A stretch of DNA of 64,000 nucleotides from an uncultured Verrucomicrobiae bacterium (lineage in GTDB: Bacteria > Chlamydiota > Chlamydiia > Chlamydiales > Rhabdochlamydiaceae), in the NCBI GenBank assembly GCA_963731265.1, contig CAVSUE010000001.1, forward strand, positions 224,001 through 288,000, written 5' to 3'. Shown here one piece after another: positions 49,145 through 60,898 of the stretch. Both the position numbers and the translations under genes were made by a program. Position 1 is the stretch's first letter, and the number at the start of each line of letters is the position of its first letter. The notes under the pieces were generated by a model that saw nothing but the letters and a program-made list of their open reading frames with translations, did not search any database and was not told where the DNA came from.

Positions 49145-51133
49145 ATGGACGCAGAGTTAAAGAAGCATTTGAGCAAAATCGCCAACACCATCCGCGAGCT
49201 TTCGATGGAAGCGGTCCAAAAGGCCAATTCGGGGCATCCGGGTTTGCCGATGGGCTGCGCTGAATTCGGAGCCTATCTCTATGGCATTCTGCTTCGCCAT
49301 AATCCCAAGAATCCGAAATGGCTGAACCGCGATCGGTTTGTTCTTTCGGCCGGCCACGGCTCGATGCTCCTGTATTCTCTGCTGCATTTATCGGGGTTTG
49401 GCCTGTCGATGGACGAAATCAAGCGATTCCGGCAGATCCATTCCAAGACGCCTGGCCACCCGGAATACCATGTGACTGCCGGAGTGGAAGCGACGACAGG
49501 TCCATTGGGGCAGGGAGTCGGCAATGCTGTCGGGCAGGCTCTCGGGTTGAAAATGCTGGGCGCCCGCTTTAATGGCGACGAGTTTACCCTCTTCAACAGC
49601 AAAGTGTACTGTTTGGCCGGCGACGGTTGCATGATGGAAGGGGTGTCGTCAGAGGCCTCTTCGCTGGCGGGACATTTGGGACTGGACAATTTGGTGCTCA
49701 TCTACGATGCGAATAAGGTCACCCTGGACGGATTTCTAGCCGAATCGGGCTCTGAGGACACGAAGCTTCGCTATTTGGCATATAATTGGGACGTCTTCGA
49801 GTTAGACGGCTATGATTTCGAACAGATGGACAAAATTTTCATGCATATCCGCGACAATCAGACGAAGCCGACTCTTGTCATTATGCACACCATCATTGGG
49901 AAAGGCTCTCCCAATAAATCAGGAACCCACAAAGTGCATGGAGCGCCCCTTGGCGTCGAAGAGGTCGAGGCAACGAAAAAAGCGCTTGGACTTCCCGAAG
50001 AAGAATTTTATGTGCCGCAATCCGTCTATACTTTTTTTGAGCAGAAGCTCGCCAAAGATACGGTCTTGGAACAAAAGTGGAAGGACATGTATCGCCGTTT
50101 CATGGAAGGCAAGCCCGATTTGGCAAAAACATTCACGGAGATGGTGGAAAAGAAACTTCCCGACAATCTCGAAGAACAGCTCAGAAAAGTCGAAATCAAG
50201 AGTCCGATGGCCACGCGTAGTTCTTCGCAAGCGGTCTTGGATAAACTGGGGGAACTTCTTCCCCAGCTGATAGGGGGATCGGCTGACCTTTCCGAATCAG
50301 ATAAGACATGGATGAAAAAATATCCGCCGATTTCCAAAGGAAATTTTACCGGACGCAACATCAAATTCGGCATCCGCGAGTTCGGCATGGCAACAGCGGC
50401 AGCTGGCCTGGCTGAGACGGACATGATCGTGCCTTTCATTGGGACTTTTTTGACATTTTCCGACTACATGCGCAATGCGGTGCGATTGGCCGCTCTTTCA
50501 AAAATTCAAGTGATTTACCAGTATACGCATGATTCGATCTTTTTAGGCGAGGACGGACCAACCCATCAGCCGATCGAACATCTTGCGGCGTTGCGCGCCA
50601 TGCCCAATCTTCACGTCATTCGTCCTGCAGATAGTTGGGAAGTGAAAATGGCTTGGATTGCCGCCTTGCGCTATCGCGGCCCTACAGCGATTGTGCTCTG
50701 TCGTCAGAACCTTCCGGAAATTCCCACTTGCAACGTTCCCTATGATCAAGGCATGGCTAAAGGAGCCTACATCGTAAAAAAAGAATCCGGAAAGGCGGAT
50801 TTTGCGTTGATGGCAACAGGATCGGAAGTTTCTCTAGCCATGGACGTTGCTGCTGCTTTGGAGAAAATCGGCAAACATGCCCGTGTGATTTCGATGCCCT
50901 GTTGGGAGCTTTTCGAACAGCAAAGCGATGATTACATACGATCGATCGTCGGAGGAGATTTGGGGCGGCGTGTCAGCATTGAGGCTGCGGTCAGCTTCGG
51001 CTGGTCTAAGTGGATCGGTCCTGAAGGGATTGCAATTTGCATGGACACTTTTGGGGAATCAGCGCCGATCAGCGATCTGGCGGCCGAGTACGGATTTACC
51101 GTCGACTCAATTTTGGACAGACTATTAACCTGA
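49145..51133 (+). CDS. tkt: transketolase
   Basis: SGHPGLPMG, RDRFVLSAGHGS, TPGHPE, GDGCMMEG, THDSIFLGEDGPTHQP. Confidence 0.98.
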   Translation: MDAELKKHLSKIANTIRELSMEAVQKANSGHPGLPMGCAEFGAYLYGILLRHNPKNPKWLNRDRFVLSAGHGSMLLYSLLHLSGFGLSMDEIKRFRQIHSKTPGHPEYHVTAGVEATTGPLGQGVGNAVGQALGLKMLGARFNGDEFTLFNSKVYCLAGDGCMMEGVSSEASSLAGHLGLDNLVLIYDANKVTLDGFLAESGSEDTKLRYLAYNWDVFELDGYDFEQMDKIFMHIRDNQTKPTLVIMHTIIGKGSPNKSGTHKVHGAPLGVEEVEATKKALGLPEEEFYVPQSVYTFFEQKLAKDTVLEQKWKDMYRRFMEGKPDLAKTFTEMVEKKLPDNLEEQLRKVEIKSPMATRSSSQAVLDKLGELLPQLIGGSADLSESDKTWMKKYPPISKGNFTGRNIKFGIREFGMATAAAGLAETDMIVPFIGTFLTFSDYMRNAVRLAALSKIQVIYQYTHDSIFLGEDGPTHQPIEHLAALRAMPNLHVIRPADSWEVKMAWIAALRYRGPTAIVLCRQNLPEIPTCNVPYDQGMAKGAYIVKKESGKADFALMATGSEVSLAMDVAAALEKIGKHARVISMPCWELFEQQSDDYIRSIVGGDLGRRVSIEAAVSFGWSKWIGPEGIAICMDTFGESAPISDLAAEYGFTVDSILDRLLT

Positions 51134-51284
51134 GTTTTCATAGTATCTTGCCAGACCTTTTGGGCGCTTTTTGCAAATTTTGCCGCGTCCATAGGTGCCT
51201 CCAGCTATTGAACGCGCCAAAATTTGCAAAAATCACCTCGAAATCTAGGGCCAATCTACTATAAAATGAACCCAAAACTCAGGT
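51128..51284. mobile_element. MITE-like palindromic element (family G, copy 1)
   Basis: ACCTGAGTTTT ... AAAACTCAGGT; inner TTTTTGCAAATTTTG...CAAAATTTGCAAAAA; inverted homologue at 56131-56295. Confidence 0.78.
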
Positions 51285-51290
51285 TCTTAC

Positions 51291-52310
51291 ATGAATCATC
51301 TACTCCTAAAAGCCCTTGGGTGCGAACAAGTCGCGCGTCCGCCCGTTTGGCTCATGCGCCAGGCGGGACGCTACATGCCCCAGTATCGCGCAATTCGAGT
51401 AAAACACTCCCTTTGGGACATGTTCCATCGGCCCGAACTTGCCGCGGCAGTCACAAAACTACCCCTTGAGCTCCTAGGCGTCGATGCCGCGATTTTATTT
51501 TCCGACATCCTCGTCATTGCGGAAGCTGTAGGGTTGTCTGTCCAGTTCCCAGAAAAAGGGGGGCCGCGCATAGAGCCGACGATCAAAACGGCTTCCCAAG
51601 TTGCTTCCCTTGTGTATATCCCCGTCGAACAATCGCTTTCCTATGTTTTTGAAACCATCAAACGGGTTAAGCGGGAGATCGATGTTCCTCTCATTGGTTT
51701 TTGCGGTGGCCCGTTTACGGTGGCGAGTTATTGTCTTGATACGATCAACCACGCGGCATTTGAACAGACAAAACGGTGGATTAAAGAAGACCCTGCCACT
51801 TTACATCAGCTCTTAACAACTCTTACACATGCGACCATTGCGTATCTAAAAGCGCAAATCGACGCAGGGGTGGATGTGATACAAATTTTCGATTCCTGGG
51901 CTAATATTTTGGACGATGATGCGTTTGCTGTTTTTTCGATTGCCTACTTAAAGCAAATCCTCGAGGCCCTGAAGCCAACCGGTATTCCCGTGATCCTCTT
52001 TTGCCGCGACTCCAGCTTGCGTGCGGAAAGTTTGGCCGAGATCAAGCCTGCCGGGATCAGTTTCGATTGGCACCTTCCCATGCACGAGTTGCGCCAAAAA
52101 GTGCCGATGCCGATCGCCGTGCAAGGAAATTTCAATCCTGAATTCCTTAAATTGCCGAAAGAAGAAATTTCCAATGAAGTTGAAAAAGTTATCTCCTCTA
52201 TGCAAGATGAGCGTGGCTTCATCGTCAATCTCGGACACGGAGTGACGCCAGATATTCCTCTTGAAAATGTCCAGCATTTTGTTAAGGTTGTAAAAAACTG
52301 CAATGCATGA
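51291..52310 (+). CDS. hemE: uroporphyrinogen decarboxylase
   Basis: PVWLMRQAGRYMP, DAAILFSDIL, IGFCGGPFT, QIFDSWA, NLGHGV. Confidence 0.97.
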   Translation: MNHLLLKALGCEQVARPPVWLMRQAGRYMPQYRAIRVKHSLWDMFHRPELAAAVTKLPLELLGVDAAILFSDILVIAEAVGLSVQFPEKGGPRIEPTIKTASQVASLVYIPVEQSLSYVFETIKRVKREIDVPLIGFCGGPFTVASYCLDTINHAAFEQTKRWIKEDPATLHQLLTTLTHATIAYLKAQIDAGVDVIQIFDSWANILDDDAFAVFSIAYLKQILEALKPTGIPVILFCRDSSLRAESLAEIKPAGISFDWHLPMHELRQKVPMPIAVQGNFNPEFLKLPKEEISNEVEKVISSMQDERGFIVNLGHGVTPDIPLENVQHFVKVVKNCNA

Positions 52311-52319
52311 GGTTTGAGC

Positions 52320-53723
52320 ATGTTTGTCCGATTTCTTTCTCTCCTTTTACTCCTCTCCCATTCGATTTTCGCTGAATATCAAAAAGTGGTCGTCATTGGA
52401 GCAGGGCTCGCAGGTTTGACAACGGCCCTTCGCTTGCAGCAGCTAACGGGACAACCTGTAGAAGTTTACGAAGCGCGCGAAAGGCCGGGGGGAAGAATTC
52501 TGACCGCCTATTTTTACGATTCGTATGAAGAGCTCGGAGCGAAATTTCTGTGCGTGACGGAAGCCGTCCGGCTGAAAGCCCTGATTCGGGAAATGGGATT
52601 AGAAATTGAAACCACGATGAGAACGGTCTCCGATCGAAAATATGTCTACCAAGGGAAGGTAGCGCCCTATTATTCCCCGTTTCTCAACACTCCCGCTTCC
52701 GACCAATCGACGTATGATCAACTTAAAGAAGCGGCGGCCGAGGGGAAGAATTTAGGCGCCGTTTTGGATGCTTTTTTCCCGAAACAGACCATCCCGCGCC
52801 ATTTGGCAGAAATTCGGATGCGCGGACTCGAAGGGAAGGATACAAAGGAGTTATCTACCGCTTATGTCGACAATTTTTGGGATTACTACAATCGGTGCAG
52901 CTTGATCGCGCATGGAGAAGATCACTTCCATATTCACCAGGAGAGCATCAAAGGAGGGAACAGCCTTCTTCCGGAAAACTTGACTAAACGGATGAAAGAT
53001 CATGTGCATTTCGGCCAGCCCTTGCGGAAAATTTCTCTGACCCACGATCGAAAATATCTTTTGGAATTCCCGAATAACAAAACAGTCACAGCGGATTATC
53101 TTGTCCTGGCCATTCCCTGTTCGACTCTGCGGGATGTTCAGATAGAAAAGGGAATTATCCCTGCTGATCAATGGAAAGCCATTAAAGCATTGCAGTACGG
53201 TACAAATGGACACATTTTGCTGGGTGTGAAATTGGGCAATGACAGCTCCGAATATTCCGTCACCGAAGATGCGCTCGTGTGGTTCAATAGCGACCGGAAA
53301 ATTTTGACGCTCGCCTATGGAGGCAAGCCGGGAGTTTTTGATTCCCACTCTTCAGAAGGTGTCAATAAACGTATCCACGAAGAGATGGCGGCGCTGAAAC
53401 TTCTTTTCCCGTCTATTACCTATTCGGGGAGGAAACGGGCCGTCAGTTGGGCGATGGAAGAATTTTCAAAGGGGAGCAACAGCAGCTGGGGCCCGGATCA
53501 GTTTGATCTCTACAATGAAAAAATGGAGATGATGGGGGAGACGGTCCGGAAGGTCTTCCGTCCCGTTCAAAACCGCCTCTTTTTTGCCGGCGAACATGCC
53601 GCCATCGATCATCCTGCGACGATGGAAGGGGCTGTAGAGTCGGGTGAATCGACAGCGCGGATTGTGGCCCAGATTGTCTCCCCTCCCGCAAAAGAAAAAG
53701 AAACTACAGGTCCAGGCTCTTGA
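52320..53723 (+). CDS. exported flavin monoamine oxidase family protein
   Basis: Signal peptide; VVIGAGLAGL, EARERPGGRI, ELGA, FFAGEH...TMEGAVESG. Confidence 0.88.
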   Translation: MFVRFLSLLLLLSHSIFAEYQKVVVIGAGLAGLTTALRLQQLTGQPVEVYEARERPGGRILTAYFYDSYEELGAKFLCVTEAVRLKALIREMGLEIETTMRTVSDRKYVYQGKVAPYYSPFLNTPASDQSTYDQLKEAAAEGKNLGAVLDAFFPKQTIPRHLAEIRMRGLEGKDTKELSTAYVDNFWDYYNRCSLIAHGEDHFHIHQESIKGGNSLLPENLTKRMKDHVHFGQPLRKISLTHDRKYLLEFPNNKTVTADYLVLAIPCSTLRDVQIEKGIIPADQWKAIKALQYGTNGHILLGVKLGNDSSEYSVTEDALVWFNSDRKILTLAYGGKPGVFDSHSSEGVNKRIHEEMAALKLLFPSITYSGRKRAVSWAMEEFSKGSNSSWGPDQFDLYNEKMEMMGETVRKVFRPVQNRLFFAGEHAAIDHPATMEGAVESGESTARIVAQIVSPPAKEKETTGPGS

Positions 53724-53756
53724 TTATTATTCAGAAACTGTTAATATGAATGAATA
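53718..53756 (+). promoter_or_regulatory. candidate tandem ARG boxes
   Basis: TTGAT-TATT-ATTCA (53720) and TTAAT-ATGA-ATGAA (53741), 21-bp period; imperfect, in AT-rich DNA. Confidence 0.35.
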
Positions 53757-53782
53757 TTATGTTTTTTATAGGAGCAACAATT

Positions 53783-53881
53783 ATGAATCCGCAAGAACCG
53801 TTAAGACGGCTTTCCTCCTCACCCGCTTTTTTCAAATCTTTGAAACATAAGTCTCTCAAAGCTGCTTTCAAGCGAAAGTAA
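53783..53881 (+). other. candidate leader ORF MNPQEPLRRLSSSPAFFKSLKHKSLKAAFKRK
   Basis: AGGAG SD at 53770, weak hairpin over the last codons, T-run after the stop, 54 nt before the symporter. Confidence 0.4.
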
Positions 53882-53935
53882 CCTTCTTTTTTTGTAATTA
53901 CTTTTTTTTAATTTCTAGCTTTTTCGTGGAGAATT

Positions 53936-55285
53936 ATGTTTCATTCTATTTTTGATTGTTTGTCTTACATCGATGCGTTTTTTTGGAGCTATCTCGGTTT
54001 TTCCTGCATTGCTCTTTTAGGTTGTTATTTCACCATTAAATCCAATTTTTTTCAAATCCGCGCTTTGCCGGCGGCCCTAAAGACATTTTGGGGCTTTATG
54101 AAAAACAAGTCTTCGGTAGGGGTAGGAACCCACCCCCTCAAAGTCTTTTTTTCTTCGGTCGGCGGGATGATCGGCGTAGGCAATATTGCCGGTATTGTCA
54201 CAGCTTTGCAAATCGGCGGCCCCGGGGCCTTATTTTGGGTGTGGATGGCGGCTTTTTTAGGATCGTTGATCAAATACTCAGAAGTTTTTTTAGGGCTGAA
54301 ATACCGCGTCGCGAACGAGAAAGGCGGATACGATGGAGGTTCGATCCATTTATTGCGCCGGGCTTTTCAAAAAAAATGGATTGGCACGGCGGCTTGCGTG
54401 CTCATGTGCATCTATGCTGCTGAGGTGTATCAATTTTCCGTCTTGTCGCATTGCATTGCGACAAATTGGCAAATTGAACATATCCTCGTCGTCGTTGCTT
54501 TGCTCATTTTAATTCTTTACACCGTACTCGGGGGAATTAAAAGGGTCGGAAAAATTTGTTCCTGGCTGATGCCGTTTTTCACAGGTATTTATCTTTTGAT
54601 GGGCTTTTACGTGATCGGGCATCACCTTCCCGAGCTTCCTGCGTTACTAGGAGAAGTGCTCTCTTCGGCTTTTACAGGGAGCGCCGGACTCGGAGGTTTT
54701 GTTGGGAGCACGATGATGCTTGCCATGCAGCAGGGAATATCCCGTTCTGTCTATTCATCTGATATTGGAATTGGGTACGATTCCATCATTCAAAGCGAAA
54801 CCAGCGCGGTGCAGATTGTCCAACAGGCTCGCTTGTCCATGCTAGGCGTCTTTATCGATAATTTGGTCTGCACTTGCACGCTTTTGATCGCATTGACTTC
54901 AGGATTTTGGAATGCAAGCCCGATGATCGACTCGGCCATGGTCATTCAAAAAGCCCTCGATGTCCATTTCCCGTGGCAGTCTGTGTTCATGCCGATCTTT
55001 ATCTTCGTCCTTGTGTACACCACAATGATTTCCTATTTGTTCGCAGGTGTCAAATGCGCTCGCTTTCTGCATCCGCTCTATGGGGAGAAAGTGTACCTTT
55101 TCTTTGCGGCCGCATTCTTGTTCTTTTTTTCTTTCTTCGACCCGTCGAAGGCGTTGCTCACGATGTCGCTTGCAGGATGCGCTCTTGTCTGCCTCAATTT
55201 GACAGGCATATTCCGCTTACGCCACGAGGTCTCTTTCGAATTAGAAGAGGAAAGCCCCTTGCTGTCCGAGTTTGAACAGGGATAA
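53936..55285 (+). CDS. alanine/glycine:cation symporter (AGCS family)
   Basis: GGMIGVGNIAGIVTALQIGGPGALFWVW, YDGG, GGIKRVG, GISRSVYSSDIGIG. Confidence 0.93.
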   Translation: MFHSIFDCLSYIDAFFWSYLGFSCIALLGCYFTIKSNFFQIRALPAALKTFWGFMKNKSSVGVGTHPLKVFFSSVGGMIGVGNIAGIVTALQIGGPGALFWVWMAAFLGSLIKYSEVFLGLKYRVANEKGGYDGGSIHLLRRAFQKKWIGTAACVLMCIYAAEVYQFSVLSHCIATNWQIEHILVVVALLILILYTVLGGIKRVGKICSWLMPFFTGIYLLMGFYVIGHHLPELPALLGEVLSSAFTGSAGLGGFVGSTMMLAMQQGISRSVYSSDIGIGYDSIIQSETSAVQIVQQARLSMLGVFIDNLVCTCTLLIALTSGFWNASPMIDSAMVIQKALDVHFPWQSVFMPIFIFVLVYTTMISYLFAGVKCARFLHPLYGEKVYLFFAAAFLFFFSFFDPSKALLTMSLAGCALVCLNLTGIFRLRHEVSFELEEESPLLSEFEQG

Positions 55286-55301
55286 ATTTTTGTTTCCCCT
55301 A

Positions 55302-56105
55302 TCACCATTTTGCTACAGGCGGCATCGAGCAAAGGATCGCTTCGGGATTCCCTCCGGAAAGAAAACCAAATTTAGTTCCGCGGTCATAAAGCAGGTTGAA
55401 TTCCACATAATGCGCCCGCGCGTGCAGTTGTTTCTCCTTTTGTTCAGGAGTAAAAGGCATTAGGATGCGGCGATCATAAATGGGGAGGATCGTCTCTAAA
55501 AACGTATCTCCAACGCGCTTCCATAAAGCAAAATCCTTTTCAAAATTTCCCGTCCGGTAGTGATCGAAAAAAATTCCGCCGACACCGCGCTCTTTTTGCC
55601 GATGAGGTAGATAAAAGTATTCCTTCGCGTTTTGCGAAAATGCGGGGTAGATCTCTTCTCCGAAAGGATCGAGCGCTTTTTTTGCGGTTTGATGAAAATG
55701 CAAAGTGTCTTCTTCATAGGCAAAGCCCATAGGCGTTAAATCATAGCCTCCGCCAAACCAGCTCTTTTCCTCGGTCTCGATGTAGCGGATATTGAAGTGG
55801 ACTGTCGGAGCATGAGGATTGAACATGTGCGTGATGAGACTGACCCCCGTGGCAAAAAATGGACCTCCCGCATCAGCCATTGGGAATTGATCGCCACTGA
55901 CGCCCGACCAATTGACGGCGGCCTTTTCGAATAGAGTGCCGCGCACCACCGCCATTTCTCCGCCGCCTTTACCCTTCTTATAATCCCATTTTTTACGCTC
56001 AAAACTTTTAGAAGGCTCATAATTTCCAAATGCTGCGATGATTTTTTCGCGCAATTCTTTTAGATACATCTCAATCTCATCTTTCAATTTATTCCTTTGA
56101 ACCAT
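55302..56105 (-). CDS. hemF: oxygen-dependent coproporphyrinogen III oxidase
   Basis: FEKAAVNWS, PTVHFNIRY, WFGGGYDLTP, RGVGGIFFD, YVEFNLLYDRGTKFG, SMPP. Confidence 0.96.
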   Translation of the reverse strand: MVQRNKLKDEIEMYLKELREKIIAAFGNYEPSKSFERKKWDYKKGKGGGEMAVVRGTLFEKAAVNWSGVSGDQFPMADAGGPFFATGVSLITHMFNPHAPTVHFNIRYIETEEKSWFGGGYDLTPMGFAYEEDTLHFHQTAKKALDPFGEEIYPAFSQNAKEYFYLPHRQKERGVGGIFFDHYRTGNFEKDFALWKRVGDTFLETILPIYDRRILMPFTPEQKEKQLHARAHYVEFNLLYDRGTKFGFLSGGNPEAILCSMPPVAKW

Positions 56106-56130
56106 AAACTCTTCCTCTAGCGGGTTAATA

Positions 56131-56295
56131 ACCTGAGCTTTGGGTCCATTTTAGAGTAGATTGCGGTAGATTTCGAGGTGATTTTTGCAAATTTCGGCGC
56201 GTACAATAGCTGGAGGCCCTATGGACGCGCCAAAATTTGCAAAAAGTGCCCGAAAGATGCGGCAAGATGCTGTGAAAGGAACTCAAAGCTCAGGT
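56131..56295. mobile_element. MITE-like palindromic element (family G, copy 2), TA-flanked
   Basis: TA-ACCTGAGCTTTG ... CAAAGCTCAGGT-TA; reverse complement aligns with 51128-51284. Confidence 0.78.
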
Positions 56296-56308
56296 TAATA
56301 GGTTAAAA

Positions 56309-57679
56309 ATGATGCAAAAAAAACAGGTTACCATTTTAGGGGCTGGGATATCAGGTTTGTCGGCCGCGTGGTATTTGACTCGAACAGGGCTTCCTCTCGA
56401 GATCACCATTCTGGAAAAAAGTTCTCGCGCAGGCGGATGGATGCATACCGATCATACGACAGGTTTTCATTTTGAAAAAGGGCCGCGCACTTTTAAAGTG
56501 GATAAATGTCCTTCGACTCTGCGCCTGATCGCCGAGTTAGGGCTTCAAGGAGAGTTGATTTGGTCGGATGCAAAACCCCATCACCGTTACCTGTGGCATG
56601 ATGGAGAATTGCATCGATTTCCCACAAATCCATTTTCTTTTTTGGTTTCACCAATTACCAAAGGTTTTCTGAAAGCATTGATGACGGAATGGAGAAAGCC
56701 GGTTAAATTAACCGACGAAACAGTTTGGGAATTTGTCTTAAGAAGGTTTAATTACGATGTCGCCCGTCTTTTTTTTGATCCGATGGTGGTGGGCATCTTT
56801 GGCGGCGATATCCGCAAGATTTCCGTCCGGGCCTGTTTTCCGAAATTGAAACGTTGGGAAGAAACTTATGGATCGGTGACAAAAGGCTTTTTTGCAGAAA
56901 TGAAGGCAAAAAAAGGGTTATCCCCCTTTTCTAAAGATGTAGAAGGATTACCTCTCTCGGCAATTTTTTCTTTCCAGTCGGGAATCGAGCAGCTTCCGCA
57001 GTCCATCGTCAATCAAATCCCTGCTAAGGTATGTTACCAGCAGCAGGCGAAGGAAATTTTCCTGGAAGACGGCCGTGTTGGAGTGAAAACGGAAAAAGGA
57101 CAGTTTTTCAGCGATTTTCTTTTCTGCGCCCTTCCGGCGGCTGAAACAGGACGTCTATTTGAAAACCTCGCCCCGGAGATCTCAAAAGAATTTTCAAAGA
57201 TTCCTTGTCTGGGCGTGGATATTGTCAATTGCGCCTATGATGGCCAAGTTCTGCCGGTCCAAGGGTTCGGATATTTGACGGCGACACACGCGCATGAAGA
57301 CGTCTTGGGCGTCATCTTTGATTCTTCCGTCTTTCCCCTGCACAATCGATCAAATCAGGAAACCCGGCTGACGATCAAGTTAGAAGAAACGGGCCGCAGT
57401 GAGGAAAAAACAATCGAAGCAGCCCTTAAGGGACTCCGCCGCCATCTCGGCATTTCCCAGATTCCAAAATGCGTCTCGTTTATACGAACCGTGATCCCTC
57501 AATACGGCGTCGGACATCTCGAAAAAATGGCAGAACTGAAAAATCACTTATGCTTAAAACTCCCCCAATTTCAACTCGTGGGAAATTATTTGGAAGGGAT
57601 CAGCGTGAATAGTTGCGTGGAGCGAGCGAAAAGAGCTGTGGAAGAGTGGGAAAAAAGGATAGGCGATGGCTCCTCTTGA
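56309..57679 (+). CDS. hemG: protoporphyrinogen oxidase (HemY type)
   Basis: GAGISGL, RAGGW, FEKGPRTF, DPMVVGIFGGD, GFGYL, IPQYGVGH, GNYLEGISVNSC. Confidence 0.93.
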   Translation: MMQKKQVTILGAGISGLSAAWYLTRTGLPLEITILEKSSRAGGWMHTDHTTGFHFEKGPRTFKVDKCPSTLRLIAELGLQGELIWSDAKPHHRYLWHDGELHRFPTNPFSFLVSPITKGFLKALMTEWRKPVKLTDETVWEFVLRRFNYDVARLFFDPMVVGIFGGDIRKISVRACFPKLKRWEETYGSVTKGFFAEMKAKKGLSPFSKDVEGLPLSAIFSFQSGIEQLPQSIVNQIPAKVCYQQQAKEIFLEDGRVGVKTEKGQFFSDFLFCALPAAETGRLFENLAPEISKEFSKIPCLGVDIVNCAYDGQVLPVQGFGYLTATHAHEDVLGVIFDSSVFPLHNRSNQETRLTIKLEETGRSEEKTIEAALKGLRRHLGISQIPKCVSFIRTVIPQYGVGHLEKMAELKNHLCLKLPQFQLVGNYLEGISVNSCVERAKRAVEEWEKRIGDGSS

Positions 57680-58115
57680 TCTTATCGAAGCTTTAAAAAA
57701 TCTTCTTAAAAGCAGAAAAGCCACAACGCAAGACGCTATTTGCTCATCGCTTGAGAAACAAGGGTATGACATCAATCAAACAAAAGCGTCTAGGTTACTT
57801 AGAAAAGTTGGAGCCATCAAGGTAATCAACGCGAAAGGAGAGACCGTCTATTCTCTTCCTCGCGAGCCCGCTCCGCCTTCGATGGATACCCCTATTAGGG
57901 ATTTGATCCTCGATATCACATCCAATGAAACAATGGTCGTCATTTTTACAAGTCCCGGCTCCGCTTCCATGGTGGCACGCGTTCTCGATTATCATCAACT
58001 CTCTACAGAAGTTCTAGGGACAATCGCCGGGGACGACACGGTTTTTGTTGCTCCTAAGACGATTAAAAACACCCACAAACTGGCCGAACAGATTAAAAAG
58101 CTCCTGAAAGACTGA
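57666..58115 (+). CDS. argR: arginine repressor
   Basis: TQDAI...GYDINQTKASRLL, VVIFTSPGSASMVARVLD, LGTIAGDDTVFV. Confidence 0.95.
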   Translation: MAPLDLIEALKNLLKSRKATTQDAICSSLEKQGYDINQTKASRLLRKVGAIKVINAKGETVYSLPREPAPPSMDTPIRDLILDITSNETMVVIFTSPGSASMVARVLDYHQLSTEVLGTIAGDDTVFVAPKTIKNTHKLAEQIKKLLKD

Positions 58116-58128
58116 ATATTTATTCAGA
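58111..58128. promoter_or_regulatory. ARG box overlapping argR stop codon
   Basis: AC-TGAAT-ATTT-ATTCA-GA matches the TGAATwwwwATTCA core exactly. Confidence 0.55.
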
Positions 58129-58172
58129 TTTTCGGTAGCCAACCCTGTGATTCTTAGAAAATTATGCTTTTA

Positions 58173-58211
58173 TTTGCGTAAATATGCTATCTTAGTGCAT
58201 AATATTCAGCA
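58173..58211 (+). promoter_or_regulatory. promoter (TTGCGT-N18-CATAAT) overlapped by tandem ARG-like boxes
   Basis: TGCGT-AAAT-ATGCT (58175) and TGCAT-AAT-ATTCA (58196), 21 bp apart. Confidence 0.45.
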
Positions 58212-58213
58212 TT

Positions 58214-58288
58214 ATGTGCCAATTGTTGATTAAAAATTCAGTCCCCTCTTCTTGTTTATTCCTTCGGCGCCCTCTCGGGCGCAGCTAA
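58214..58288 (+). other. candidate Arg leader ORF MCQLLIKNSVPSSCLFLRRPLGRS
   Basis: CGG CGC codons on the left arm of GCGCCC-TCTC-GGGCGC, stop, then T-run. Confidence 0.45.
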
Positions 58289-58344
58289 TCTCTTTTTTCT
58301 CATGTAAATTTTTTTTAAATCAATAAACATCAAGGAATAAACAT

Positions 58345-59322
58345 ATGTCTACTATAACCCCTTTCCAAGCAGGGCCTTTTCCAAACAACGATATTTTGCA
58401 TTACGGCTTGCAATTTATTGATATTGCTGACATTGCCTCTTCCGCTCTGGTCTGCAAGGCATGGGAAGCCGCCGTGCAATACCATCACATTTGGCTGCAA
58501 CTGTTCGCCAATGAAAAAATCCCCCGTATCGAGGGAAGAACAACAACAGCGAAGGAAGACTTCAGGTTTATGCGATCCATCACCTACAGCGCACAAAAAA
58601 GCGGCTGGATGGGAAAGTTTGTCGGTGTTGTGCCGAAAATCAGCGCAAATGTCTTCGAACTCTTGAAGACGGCAATGGATCCCTATGAACCTGACAAAAA
58701 AATGAGCGAAACGTTTGTGATTGTTGTTGAGCCTACAAACTTCCATGTCCCTTATCATGCAGGTTTGTTCGACGACCTTGTCAAAAAGGGTGACTTCGAT
58801 ACAAAAAGTGAAGAGGTTGGCAGCTTCAAGAAAAACGGAATACTGATCCCTTATTCGCTTAAAAATTTGAAAATTCTTGCTGGATATGCAGCTGCCAAAA
58901 AAGGGAAGGGGCCTGTTTTCAACCACGCGTATCTCGGGGCTGAGAATTTGCAAAAGATCCTGGACCAATGCAGTGCAATTGCCAAAACAGTTCGTGTGTC
59001 CATCATGCGCATCGAAGTTCCTCCACAAAGCTGCAATGAATCGTATGATCAACAAAAAGGACTCCTTGAAGAAAAGGGACTCGAGATGGTCTCGTTGTGT
59101 ACTCGATTTTACTTTAATTTGGGTAAGCACATCTGCCGCGACAAGCAAGCAGAGTCTTCATCGATCTTTTCTCAGACATCCGATGAAGTCGAACTCGGCG
59201 AGAATCTTTCTCCCGTAGTGATTTCTGAGCCTGGCTTCCCTGGGGGAATCTGCTTCCATTTCTCAAAGTCTGCTTTGGAGGAGGTTGGCGCCGCCTCGGT
59301 CGTTAGGGGACCCGGCCATTAG
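58345..59322 (+). CDS. F-box-like domain protein, putative effector
   Basis: FPNNDILHYGLQFIDIADIASSALVCKAWEAA....IWLQLF fits the F-box pattern; AAGGA SD. Confidence 0.8.
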   Translation: MSTITPFQAGPFPNNDILHYGLQFIDIADIASSALVCKAWEAAVQYHHIWLQLFANEKIPRIEGRTTTAKEDFRFMRSITYSAQKSGWMGKFVGVVPKISANVFELLKTAMDPYEPDKKMSETFVIVVEPTNFHVPYHAGLFDDLVKKGDFDTKSEEVGSFKKNGILIPYSLKNLKILAGYAAAKKGKGPVFNHAYLGAENLQKILDQCSAIAKTVRVSIMRIEVPPQSCNESYDQQKGLLEEKGLEMVSLCTRFYFNLGKHICRDKQAESSSIFSQTSDEVELGENLSPVVISEPGFPGGICFHFSKSALEEVGAASVVRGPGH

Positions 59323-59339
59323 GGATCGGTAGAACGATC

Positions 59340-59379
59340 TTTTTCTGCGGTGCGGCTAGCGAGGCGCACCGCAAAAAAA
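59340..59379. terminator. hairpin after F-box gene
   Basis: TTTTTC-TGCGGTGCG...CGCACCGCA-AAAAAA; T-run before and A-run after extend the stem. Confidence 0.5.
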
Positions 59380-59423
59380 TCTTGTCTTTCTGGAAAATCA
59401 GGCGAGATGATACGCTCTCTATT

Positions 59424-59498
59424 ATGAAGCATTTGAATTTCTTTTATACCTACTCTGCCGCATCCGCCTTCTCAGCACCGCAAAGGTGCTGTAATTAG
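59424..59498 (+). other. candidate Ala/Ser leader ORF MKHLNFFYTYSAASAFSAPQRCCN
   Basis: SAASAFSA run ending on the left arm of CAGCACC-GCAAA-GGTGCTG, stop, T6; 54 nt before the symporter. Confidence 0.5.
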
Positions 59499-59552
59499 TT
59501 TTTTCTCCCTAATTTATAAAACCGTCCAGAAGAACTAAAAAAAGGAATTTGT

Positions 59553-60893
59553 ATGGATGTAAAAGGGCTGCTTGAAAGTTTTAACCATTATTTCACACTT
59601 GGGGCCGTTTTCCCGGCCATCCTTGCCGTCGGACTCTATCTCACGCTGAAGCTGCGCTTTGTGCAAGTTTCGCAGCTCAAAAAAAGCTTTAGCAGCTTGA
59701 CGAGCAAAAATCTCGAGGGCAAAGGGAATATCAGCCGTTTTGCCGTGCTCTCCACGGTGTTGGCGGGAAATTTTGGGACGGGGAATATTTCCGGGATGGC
59801 TGTGGCCCTTGCCTCAGGGGGCCCTGGTGCGCTGGTATGGATGTGGGTCATGGCTTTCTTTGGGGCGGCCATTCAGTATGCAAGCTGCATTTTGGGCATC
59901 TCCTATCGCCGCAAAATGCAAAATAATGAATATGCAGGCGGTCCGATGTATTATTTGCGCGACGGCCTGGGCTATAAAAAATTAGCTATGCTCTTTTGCG
60001 TCTTTGCGATTTTTGGGGCGGTCACCGTCGGTAATTTTGCTCAGATCAATTCAATCGTGCTGCCCCTGCAAAAAATAGGTTTTAATCCACTGTACACGAG
60101 TCTTGTCATTGCCGCGATGGTCGGCTTTGTCATCTTGGGTGGGATCAAACGGCTATCGAATTTCGCTTCCTTGATCGTTCCTTTTAAAGCCCTTCTTTAT
60201 TTGGGGACCGCTGCAGTGATCATCGGCATGAACTACGATCGAGTGGGGGATGCTTTGGGCCTGATGGTCCGCCATGCATTTGGCTTTTCCGCTGCTGCCG
60301 GCGGGATCATGGGATTCAGCGTTGTAAAAATGATCACCACAGGTTTTGACAGGGGGCTATTTGCCACCGATGCAGGGACGGGGATCGTGCCCATTCTGCA
60401 GGCCAATGCCCGGTCCGATCACCCCGTCATGGATGGGATTGCGACCCTTGTCGCGCCGCTCATGGTCATGATTGTTTGCACGGCGACCGGCCTCGTGCTC
60501 ATTTTGACGGGGGCTTGGTTGGATCCCGGCCTGCAAAGCACGAACATGGTCACATTTGCTTTTTCGAAAGGCCTAGGCACGCCTGTGGGCGGCTATATCG
60601 TCATCATCGCTCTCGTTTTTTTTGCGTATACGACGATTTTGGCTTGGTCATATTGCGGCGAAAAAGCTTTAGAATTTCTAGTCGGTCCCGACAAACGAAA
60701 ATGGTTTCGCTACACCTACATCGCCCTTGTGCCGATCGGAAGCGTGATGCGCGTCGATATGATCTGGACGCTGGCGGACATTGCGATCACATTGATGCTG
60801 TTCATCAACATCATCGGGGTGATGGGCCTTTCCAGGCAGGTCATCAATTCGAGCAGAGAGTTTAAGGCATCGTTGCCGGTAGAAGGCACATAA
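59553..60893 (+). CDS. alanine/glycine:cation symporter (AGCS family)
   Basis: GNFGTGNISGMAVALASGGPGALVWMW, YAGGPMYYL, GGIKRL, RGLFATDAGTG, FFAYTTILAWSYCGE. Confidence 0.94.
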   Translation: MDVKGLLESFNHYFTLGAVFPAILAVGLYLTLKLRFVQVSQLKKSFSSLTSKNLEGKGNISRFAVLSTVLAGNFGTGNISGMAVALASGGPGALVWMWVMAFFGAAIQYASCILGISYRRKMQNNEYAGGPMYYLRDGLGYKKLAMLFCVFAIFGAVTVGNFAQINSIVLPLQKIGFNPLYTSLVIAAMVGFVILGGIKRLSNFASLIVPFKALLYLGTAAVIIGMNYDRVGDALGLMVRHAFGFSAAAGGIMGFSVVKMITTGFDRGLFATDAGTGIVPILQANARSDHPVMDGIATLVAPLMVMIVCTATGLVLILTGAWLDPGLQSTNMVTFAFSKGLGTPVGGYIVIIALVFFAYTTILAWSYCGEKALEFLVGPDKRKWFRYTYIALVPIGSVMRVDMIWTLADIAITLMLFINIIGVMGLSRQVINSSREFKASLPVEGT

Positions 60894-60898
60894 TCTGT

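Follow-up and report, generated by a model that had tools for sequence, protein, structure and literature searches.

Chlamydiae depend on their hosts for many amino acids and have few known regulators, and how such bacteria might adjust amino acid uptake is the question raised by three small open reading frames (ORFs) within the genome of an uncultured member of the Rhabdochlamydiaceae (GCA_963731265.1; G000 below). The three lie in a stretch of 64,000 nt of contig CAVSUE010000001.1 (positions 224,001 to 288,000), referred to here in its full length as the window. ORF1 and ORF3 precede two genes of the alanine/glycine:cation symporter family (AGCS#1 and AGCS#2), and ORF2 precedes a gene for an F-box-like protein. 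An initial annotation had described them as leaders of a single architecture in which Ala or Arg control codons sit on the left arm of a hairpin followed by a T-run, and had proposed that they act as minimal transcription attenuators. The three ORFs are found where they had been placed, with ATT ahead of each ATG, gaps of 54, 56 and 54 nt to the next gene and T-runs downstream, and ORF2 and ORF3 have 24 codons and no Shine–Dalgarno (SD) sequence. Comparison with related genomes, some of which are designated G001–G005, G013 and G420, favours a different mode of action: we consider it somewhat better than an even chance that the ORFs are genuine cis-acting leaders, and that they exert a ribosome-mediated attenuation acting mainly on access to the ribosome-binding site (RBS) of the main gene.

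Conservation of the leaders and their two types

That short ORFs arise by chance was a caveat of the initial annotation, and it loses its force here as the leaders are conserved ahead of orthologous genes in related Chlamydiota. Judging from sequence comparison the ORFs are more than chance occurrences, having been kept through sequence divergence and indels. AGCS#2 was searched for in 41 relatives and in one genome per GTDB species, which yielded 61 further chlamydial loci; AGCS#1 was searched for in 41 relatives and in 400 genomes of the order (213 matched), 20 further upstream regions were added, and the distinct loci were read by eye (n = 59).

ORF3 has a homologue of 19–24 codons in all six genus members that possess an AGCS#2 orthologue, with the N-terminus, the hairpin (arms GCACC/GGUGC) and the region of the stop codon all kept. 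In G002 one nucleotide of the loop is deleted and the frame is restored upstream, and in another genus member the stop codon lies in the loop. Six more lineages carry an ORF of 16–22 codons in the same position, 53–70 nt ahead of the gene except in one of the six, where the gap is 132 nt and the main start uncertain. At least seven distinct stem sequences occupy the place of the ORF3 hairpin; in three cases the loop contains the stop codon, which otherwise lies 0–9 nt past the stem. Read by eye, 12 of the 61 other AGCS#2 loci have an ORF3-type leader; an automated scan under a fixed rule found a short ORF (sORF) with a hairpin at its stop codon in 13 of the 61, nine of which contain at least 15% Ser, and the same rules applied to G000 returned 50 and 12 genes, respectively, among the 402 with any upstream sORF. 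At one locus of G004 (L011, reverse strand near 1426) an ORF3-type leader stands directly before the C-terminal part of AGCS#2 (query residues 253–440), where either the gene is truncated or the contig is misassembled.

ORF2 is present at three of four syntenic orthologues of the F-box-like gene (G000, G003 and G002); no such leader was found at the G005 orthologue, nor before nine other F-box paralogues examined in G000. Its hairpin shows a compensatory C:G to G:C change in G003, and in G002 the stem is a different one. The promoter-like arrangement ahead of ORF2 recurs in G003 and G002; for ORF2 the -10 element ends 10–12 nt before the ATG. The check that the initial annotation had suggested, an alignment of upstream regions, accordingly supports the ORFs and shows a compensatory change in the ORF2 stem; the Ala-Ala codons of ORF1, which it had named as control codons, are replaced in relatives by Val-Ala, Val-Thr, Val-Ser and others.

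A census of the whole of G000, which rests on crude gene calls of our own, returned 594 intergenic sORFs (ATG start, 15–50 codons, 30–140 nt ahead of a gene). A hairpin at the stop codon is found in 66 of them, eight of which (at six loci) also have a T-run, and a TAnnnT hexamer stands 6–8 nt before the ATG in 29 of the 594. Only three sORFs unite the -10-like hexamer, the stop hairpin and the T-run: ORF2, ORF3 and a leader outside the window that precedes a gene for a DAACS transporter. The DAACS leader begins with TG-n-TATAGT, seven nucleotides and ATG; its hairpin (arms ACCGGC/GCCGGU) abuts the UAA and is followed by a C/U tract, the gene beginning after a gap of 61 nt. The leader is kept in 13 of 16 orthologues among 61 relatives. 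No NCBIfam match points to a substrate of the carrier, and Atlas names it at family level only.

Thr makes up 26.7% of residues in the family of the DAACS leader compared with a background of 4.5% (5.9-fold), the fraction per peptide ranges from 0.14 to 0.35 against a 99th percentile of 0.167 in the null set, and each peptide has 3–7 Thr in 18–24 codons. All four Thr codons are in use (ACC 41, ACG 16, ACT 9, ACA 4), and the conserved Thr run coincides exactly with the hairpin's left arm and the stretch just 5' of it. More clearly than any other feature, this run suggests that the leader class reads an amino acid. In one relative (L234, G420) hairpin and Thr codons are present and the ATG is in another frame beside a T homopolymer, either a frameshift or a sequencing error. 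The ORF3 family contains 21.7% Ser (2.2-fold over background) and 11% Ala (2.0-fold). The Ser/Ala-rich run that the initial annotation had read as a candidate Ala sensor does lie on and just 5' of the left arm, and it is Ser and Ala together, not Ala alone, that are enriched. The Ser codons of the leaders are mostly UCN, which the consulted part of a study of Bacillus subtilis sinR names as the serine-sensitive codons (PMC3862929). In the ORF2 family no clear codon run or amino acid enrichment is seen, and its Arg-Arg pair, formerly put forward as control codons, is a by-product of the GC hairpin arm, as is the Arg-Arg-stop of the DAACS leader.

By these features ORF2, ORF3 and the DAACS leader form one class, and ORF1 belongs to a separate, SD-led peptide family; the common architecture proposed at the outset holds for ORF2 and ORF3, where the relatives extend it, and leaves ORF1 aside. 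The order of elements in the class is a -10-like box 6–10 nt before the ATG, 18–24 codons with a run enriched in small amino acids, which are Thr for the DAACS leader and Ser plus Ala for ORF3, an anti-SD pyrimidine stretch, a GC hairpin of 5–7 bp with the stop codon at its end or inside it, a C/U tract, and the main gene some 55–60 nt further on. In most genus members the gap from leader stop to main start is 53–63 nt. Relatives keep neither the ATT ahead of the ATG nor a length of exactly 24 codons (theirs is 18–24), and both features are probably incidental. Against shuffled sequences the hairpins of ORF2 and ORF3 stand out (Table 1), as does that of the DAACS leader; the hairpin over the last codons of ORF1, listed initially alongside the other two, is no better than chance.

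A TAnnnT hexamer, often after TG-n, precedes the in-frame ATG by 6–8 nt in all six genus ORF3 loci, where it takes the form TG-n-TAnnnT at a distance of 7–8 nt, and in about 10 of 13 DAACS leaders. Together with the lack of an SD sequence, the -10-like hexamers 6–10 nt before the ATG point to transcription starts at or close to the start codon, and the mRNAs of ORF2, ORF3 and the DAACS leader are predicted to be leaderless or nearly so. Neither the ORF2 box nor that of ORF3 was among the sites returned by a promoter scan with fixed criteria of its own. Leaderless mRNAs do exist in the phylum, and for Chlamydia pneumoniae the accessible part of one report gives 5 of 437 genes (PMC3333780). A Rhabdochlamydia-like genome carries a leader of the ORF1 type, and ORF3-type leaders occur in Parachlamydiaceae-like genomes. 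None of the present leaders was seen in four Chlamydia-genus-like genomes, and Rfam searches at E values up to 10 returned nothing at the leaders (window positions 50000–64000 and the DAACS leader).

ORF1 is of another kind. An SD-led ORF of 25–55 codons was read by eye at 18 of the 59 distinct AGCS#1 loci, and SD-like purine runs stand ahead of most family members. A profile built from 15 of the peptides, used in a six-frame search (E ≤ 0.01), matched 29 of the 400 genomes of the order with a single match in each, and an AGCS#1 orthologue follows directly behind all 19 matches of checkable position. An N-terminal motif is common to the distant members, and the C-terminal half is kept in the form Leu-Lys-Arg-Lys, three variable residues, Val, two residues, Lys-Arg-Lys and stop. 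This C-terminal motif extends across at least eight GTDB families with synonymous codon changes; the peptides of ORF2 and ORF3 are variable. Lys-Arg-Lys-stop closes 17 of 17 peptides listed, a further locus (L191) being one codon shorter through a change of CGA to TGA, and CGA encodes the final Arg in each of the 11 rows aligned as well as in the codon lists drawn up for the family. In those 11 rows, six others with indels having been left out, the last 14 codons have a summed entropy of 6.44, 6.97 and 9.71 at the first, second and third codon positions, so the third is the most variable. The family contains 20% Ser (2.0-fold over background) and 12% Lys. An alignment of it found no match at E ≤ 0.01 in a collection of 5.8 billion proteins, and the family is therefore unannotated; a metagenome scan with AGCS#1 gave 324 pattern matches, none of which was confirmed.

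Leader pairing with the downstream ribosome-binding site

A feature that the initial annotation had not considered is base-pairing between leader and RBS. In minimum free energy (MFE) folds, a stretch within each leader just 5' of the small hairpin pairs with the SD sequence of the main gene, in a helix that encloses the small hairpin and the U-rich spacer. For ORF2 this helix has 12 perfect pairs, a length reached by 9 of 1138 genes (null 0.05%), and in G002 its 12 bp are kept with an entirely different sequence. The ORF1 helix, which in this genus joins the Leu-Lys-Arg/His-Lys-Ser codons to the SD and AUG of AGCS#1, consists of 12 Watson–Crick pairs with at most one mismatch, as found in 16 of the 1138 genes (null 0.35%), and compensatory changes occur in its SD half across five genus members. 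The DAACS leader is complementary at nine of nine positions to the SD region of the next gene. Covariation was assessed by a swap test, in which ribosome-binding sites were exchanged among family members and the duplex energies of self and cross pairs compared. Self pairs are the stronger in two sets: the ORF1 leaders of the genus give -17.11 for self and -13.69 for cross pairs (p ~0.0006), and the DAACS leaders give -13.65 and -11.70 (p ~0.0002). A predicted sequestration of the SD sequence by the leader is thus a feature of ORF1 in the genus, of ORF2 in G000 and G002, and of the DAACS leader.

We propose the following regulatory use of such a helix. A ribosome that translates the leader and lingers on codons situated on, or just 5' of, the masking stretch would leave the ribosome-binding site open; lingering would follow from short supply of the cognate aminoacyl-tRNA and would result in more transporter, and a main gene that goes untranslated would in addition be exposed to Rho. 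Ribosomes cover about 15 nt to each side of their P site, and with this footprint assumed the geometry of the sensor codons fits the DAACS leader and the Ser/Ala run of ORF3. The notion of a ribosome-read attenuator, which goes back to the initial annotation, is retained here as the most plausible function; the amino acids named at that time were wrong, and the output mechanism probably was.

Several results weigh against attenuation through RBS access. By eye, no such leader was seen at 49 of the 61 AGCS#2 loci or at 41 of the 59 AGCS#1 loci. For ORF2 no clear run of codons is seen, and the gene behind it does not encode a transporter; its helix is down to about 8 of 12 pairs in G003, and with three members its family leaves the swap test without power. 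The ORF3 pairing is weak in G000 (nine pairs, null 12%) and the swap test for its family is not significant (p ~0.11). Self energies equal cross energies among 11 distant members of the ORF1 family (-9.38 and -9.36, p 0.48); the pairing does not extend to these and therefore cannot explain the conservation of the peptide throughout the family. Leader-to-RBS energies from RNAduplex are ordinary, the three loci ranking 322, 488 and 867 among 1138 genes; since genome-wide means of -14.4 for real and -14.1 for swapped pairs do not discriminate, helix-length statistics took the place of these energies as the genome-wide measure. The enrichment of Ser and Ala in the ORF3 family is modest, about twofold, and anti-SD pyrimidine stretches favour UCN in any case. 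Finally, the compared sequences are akin rather than independent, and the significance of the tests is overstated to that extent.

Termination, peptide and enhancer accounts of the leaders

The minimal transcription attenuator of the initial annotation supposes that the stop hairpin and the U-tract terminate transcription, and that a ribosome stalled at hungry codons blocks the hairpin and permits read-through. We regard this as unlikely, although it shares with attenuation at the RBS the logic by which hunger yields more transporter, and the two mechanisms could coexist. A GC hairpin followed by a U-rich tract is kept in the ORF2, ORF3 and DAACS families, the enriched Thr and Ser/Ala codons lie on and just 5' of the left arm, and the ORF3 hairpin was listed as terminator-like, albeit as the only one and under a loose rule. 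Against this, the stop codon and a spacer separate the stem from the U-tract, which begins 4–10 nt further on in all members. The ORF1 hairpin is matched by shuffled sequences, and RNAalifold finds no stable conserved fold in the ORF1 alignment (consensus energy -0.48 kcal/mol). By the U-tract distance and the z-score of the ORF1 hairpin (-0.65), the leaders lack a canonical intrinsic terminator. Nor is the genome rich in such signals: hairpins are no commoner within 60 nt after stop codons of G000 (490 of 1968) than inside genes (525 of 1968), and even among gene ends few (39, with 21 instances inside genes) have a hairpin that is followed immediately by a T-run. Moreover, a ribosome at the stop codon would also cover the hairpin, and neither the MFE folds nor RNAalifold revealed a mutually exclusive antiterminator, without which the stalled and unstalled states would differ little. 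The Ala-Ala and Arg-Arg control codons, on which the proposal leaned, are unsupported.

In hairpin-stabilised pauses, as in the his and trp leaders, a hairpin stands about 10–11 nt ahead of a weak hybrid. We therefore think it more likely that the hairpin of the present leaders, with its U-rich tract about 10 nt downstream, serves for pausing, for timing or to stabilise the masking helix than that it terminates transcription. It should be added that in the MAFFT alignment the helix arms are out of register owing to indels.

For ORF1 the peptide itself could be the active part, either as an arrest sensor of the TnaC/SpeFL kind near Lys-Arg-Lys-stop or as a small basic protein partner of the transporter. 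This is a doubtful proposition, which the failure of the ORF1:RBS pairing to generalise to distant members nevertheless invites. The peptide is conserved along its length in at least eight GTDB families, its C-terminus and the CGA codon are constant, and each matched genome has one match, by AGCS#1 in all 19 cases of checkable position. The local hairpin is stronger in distant relatives, where it lies between the Phe-Val and the Lys-Arg-Lys codons; its downstream arm is invariant even though the pairing partner differs from lineage to lineage. The peptide is, however, short, Ser-rich and of low complexity, its absence from the database marks it as unannotated and not as functional, and its conservation coincides in part with the RNA pairing. 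Basic C-terminal residues, furthermore, favour rather than hinder termination of translation in Escherichia coli, which argues against an arrest at the end of ORF1.

A more ambitious version combines these elements into a ribosome-read hunger regulon, or 'ribulon', in which leaderless ORFs of environmental chlamydiae, rich in Thr or Ser/Ala, report tRNA charging and jointly switch on two AGCS carriers, one DAACS carrier and a host-directed F-box effector, whose gene in this genome also lies behind ArgR boxes, and in which the ORF1 peptide is a new ligand-sensing arrest peptide. We hold this to be improbable. Were it true, amino acid starvation of the bacterium would directly trigger the breakdown of host protein, in the manner described for Legionella AnkB in the available portion of the source (PMC4259488).

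It is very improbable that the leaders are constitutive translation enhancers, which hand ribosomes on to the main start about 55 nt downstream or unmask it without sensing anything. The idea that leader genes raise expression through reinitiation has been published, as the accessible part of the paper indicates (PMC4833913). It would suit the narrow conserved gap between leader stop and main start in most genus members, an SD masking that any translating ribosome would open, and ORF2 with its want of a codon run. A Thr run with synonymous turnover in the DAACS leaders is hard to explain without sensing, and gaps of 86–169 nt in distant ORF1 members do not agree with a fixed hand-over distance. 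Least credible of all is that the ORFs are fortuitous and that their conserved parts are non-coding elements such as operators or structured 5' untranslated regions: part of the conserved N-terminal codons of ORF2 does coincide with an ARG-box-like site, and much of the conserved sequence with RNA helices, but neither the strong divergence of the N-terminal halves nor indels have removed the open frames and an ATG in a fixed place, conserved Thr, Lys and Arg positions show synonymous turnover, and no Rfam family matches.

Known systems, the locus and its surroundings

The closest known system to attenuation at the RBS as favoured here would be the leaderless polycysteine sORF attenuators of mycobacteria (Ms5788A; Canestrari et al.), in which, according to the consulted part of the preprint, the RBS downstream is sequestered in a duplex unless ribosomes stalled in leaderless poly-Cys sORFs block it (bioRxiv 10.1101/834739). 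As far as that text goes, the two designs have in common an sORF (here predicted to be leaderless) as first cistron, part of which pairs with the SD sequence of the next gene, the use of several loci of one genome, and, in our proposal, a ribosome stalled for want of one aminoacyl-tRNA that keeps the RBS open. The present leaders differ from that account in being rich in Thr or Ser/Ala instead of Cys, in preceding uptake systems and an F-box-like gene instead of biosynthesis genes, in the additional presence of a stop-codon GC hairpin and of a C/U tract, and in belonging to the phylum Chlamydiota.

Other comparisons are looser. The enterobacterial thrL, hisL and trpL likewise are leaders of about 20 codons with a codon run, for which the 3–7 Thr of the DAACS leader are the counterpart; here, by contrast, the U-tract stands off the stem, there is neither a pair of antiterminator and terminator nor an SD sequence for the leader, and the genes are those of transporters and not biosynthetic operons. 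In translational attenuation of ermC and cat, a stalled leader ribosome remodels the RNA and frees a masked SD sequence, as we propose for the present leaders; the stall there depends on drug and peptide and the RNA forms two tandem hairpins, whereas here a small hairpin lies within a single long-range helix, and tRNA charging is presumed to be the signal. ORF1 alone resembles TnaC and SpeFL, in that a conserved peptide with an invariant C-terminus at the stop codon precedes an amino acid-related gene, but it has no sequence similarity to them, and its short U-rich spacer offers no obvious Rho-loading site. Within the phylum, the consulted part of a study of Chlamydia trachomatis reports attenuation dependent on tryptophan codons, involving trpL and the WWW motif of YtgR (PMC7755916). 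Stalling at codons for a scarce amino acid would be the signal in both cases, while genes, amino acid and architecture all differ from what that text describes. A survey of 2010 gives, in its accessible part, almost none of the attenuators predicted in Chlamydiae an associated function (PMC2965389), and no description of the present leaders was found in the full texts searched, which do not cover all journals.

If attenuation at the RBS is borne out, obligate intracellular bacteria would tune amino acid uptake directly from tRNA charging, translational attenuation by leaderless sORFs, so far described in mycobacteria, would extend to a distant phylum, and such control could act on transporters instead of biosynthetic operons. 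An unannotated peptide family that spans the order and ends in Lys-Arg-Lys-stop comes to light as well, and offers a concrete experimental handle in cultivable relatives.

Table 1. Leaders, their pairing partners and associated genes; positions refer to the window unless a contig is given, and z-scores and shuffle counts apply to the hairpins.
Feature	Position	Strand	Remarks
ORF1 SD sequence AGGAG	53770..53774	+	8 nt upstream of ORF1
Leader ORF1, 32 codons	53783..53881	+	family peptide ending Lys-Arg-Lys-stop, upstream of AGCS#1 orthologues
ORF1 segment, Leu-Lys-His-Lys-Ser-Leu codons	53839..53857	+	complementary to AGCS#1 SD and start codon (MFE folds, RNAduplex)
Weak A/U-rich hairpin over final codons of ORF1	53863..53880	+	-6.2 kcal/mol, z -0.65, 49/200 shuffles as good
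C/U-rich tract with T-run (53887-53893) past ORF1 stop	53882..53893	+	similar C/U tracts in relatives
AGCS#1 translation-initiation region (SD GGAGA, ATG 53936)	53926..53943	+	pairs with 53839-53857
AGCS#1, alanine/glycine:cation symporter family	53936..55285	+	PF01235, TIGR00835
argR	57666..58115	+	PF01316, PF02863
ARG-box-like palindrome, perfect	58113..58126	.	overlaps argR stop codon; one of two perfect matches in the genome (presumed consensus)
Promoter-like -35 TTGCGT, 18-nt spacer, -10 CATAAT	58174..58203	+	candidate; ends 10 nt ahead of ORF2 ATG
Leader ORF2, 24 codons, no SD	58214..58288	+	leader of F-box-like gene
ARG-box-like site, one mismatch	58227..58240	.	inside ORF2 (presumed consensus)
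ORF2 anti-SD stretch	58253..58264	+	12/12 pairs with 58332-58343
ORF2 GC hairpin, 6 bp, 4-nt loop	58267..58282	+	ends 3 nt before ORF2 stop; -13.0 kcal/mol, z -3.12, 3/200 shuffles as good
C/U tract with T-run (58293-58298) past ORF2 stop	58289..58301	+	sequence read
SD region of F-box-like gene	58332..58343	+	partner of ORF2 anti-SD stretch
F-box-like gene	58345..59322	+	PF12937 at E 3.9e-4, under curated cut-off
Extended -10-like box TG-n-TACGCT	59408..59416	+	candidate; ends 7 nt ahead of ORF3 ATG
Leader ORF3, 24 codons, no SD	59424..59498	+	leader of AGCS#2
Ser/Ala-rich run SAASAFSA	59454..59477	+	just 5' of, and on, left arm of hairpin
ORF3 GC hairpin, 7 bp, 5-nt loop	59473..59491	+	ends 4 nt before ORF3 stop; -13.0 kcal/mol, z -4.22, 0/200 shuffles as good
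T-run (59499-59504) and CTCCC tract past ORF3 stop	59499..59509	+	sequence read
AGCS#2 SD AAGGA	59542..59546	+	weak leader pairing in G000, clearer in G003, G001 and G013
AGCS#2, alanine/glycine:cation symporter family	59553..60893	+	PF01235, TIGR00835
DAACS leader, 21 codons, five Thr	G000:C1:192360-192425 (L223:1374-1439)		outside window; new locus from census
DAACS transporter gene	G000:C1:192487-193638		PF00375

The part of the window that holds the leaders contains, in this order, hemE, an amine-oxidase-like gene, AGCS#1, hemF (minus strand), a protoporphyrinogen-oxidase-like gene, argR, the F-box-like gene and AGCS#2. The vicinity of argR had led the initial annotation to connect the Arg codons of ORF2 with ARG boxes, and the boxes are indeed present, as identified in a genome scan with what we take to be the ARG-box consensus. 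ORF2 itself belongs to the F-box-like gene and not to argR, because the leader is kept in G002, where argR is not adjacent to the F-box orthologue; no argR was found in G001–G003. The G002 leader rules out ArgR as a link to the Arg codons of ORF2, and so, further, does the other perfect ARG box, which precedes a gene for a leucine-rich-repeat protein and not an arginine gene. In this species ArgR may nonetheless control the promoter of ORF2 and the F-box-like gene, separately from the leader. The second perfect palindrome is located at G000:C1:1250915, about 560 nt ahead of the leucine-rich-repeat gene, and the genes downstream of both perfect palindromes are eukaryote-like.

The F-box-like protein has a family of paralogues, with 13 matches in G000 and 12 in G002. 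Past its gene, at window positions 59340-59379, lies a strong GC hairpin that is preceded 5' by a T-run and followed 3' by an A-run, so that neither strand has a canonical terminator tail; at the same place G002 has a GC hairpin with no T-run. The records of the closest relatives are titled Verrucomicrobia and all more distant orthologues come from Chlamydiae/Chlamydiota, so the close ones are probably mislabelled bins. A dispersed repeat is found at window positions 56130-56296 and 51272-51285. Its 14-mer, CCAAANCTCAGGTT, has 31 copies in the genome compared with four for the reversed control, and often occurs as intergenic inverted pairs about 150 nt apart, resembling a miniature inverted-repeat transposable element. 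One such pair fills the intergenic region between hemF and the protoporphyrinogen-oxidase-like gene, and another copy stands just ahead of hemE.

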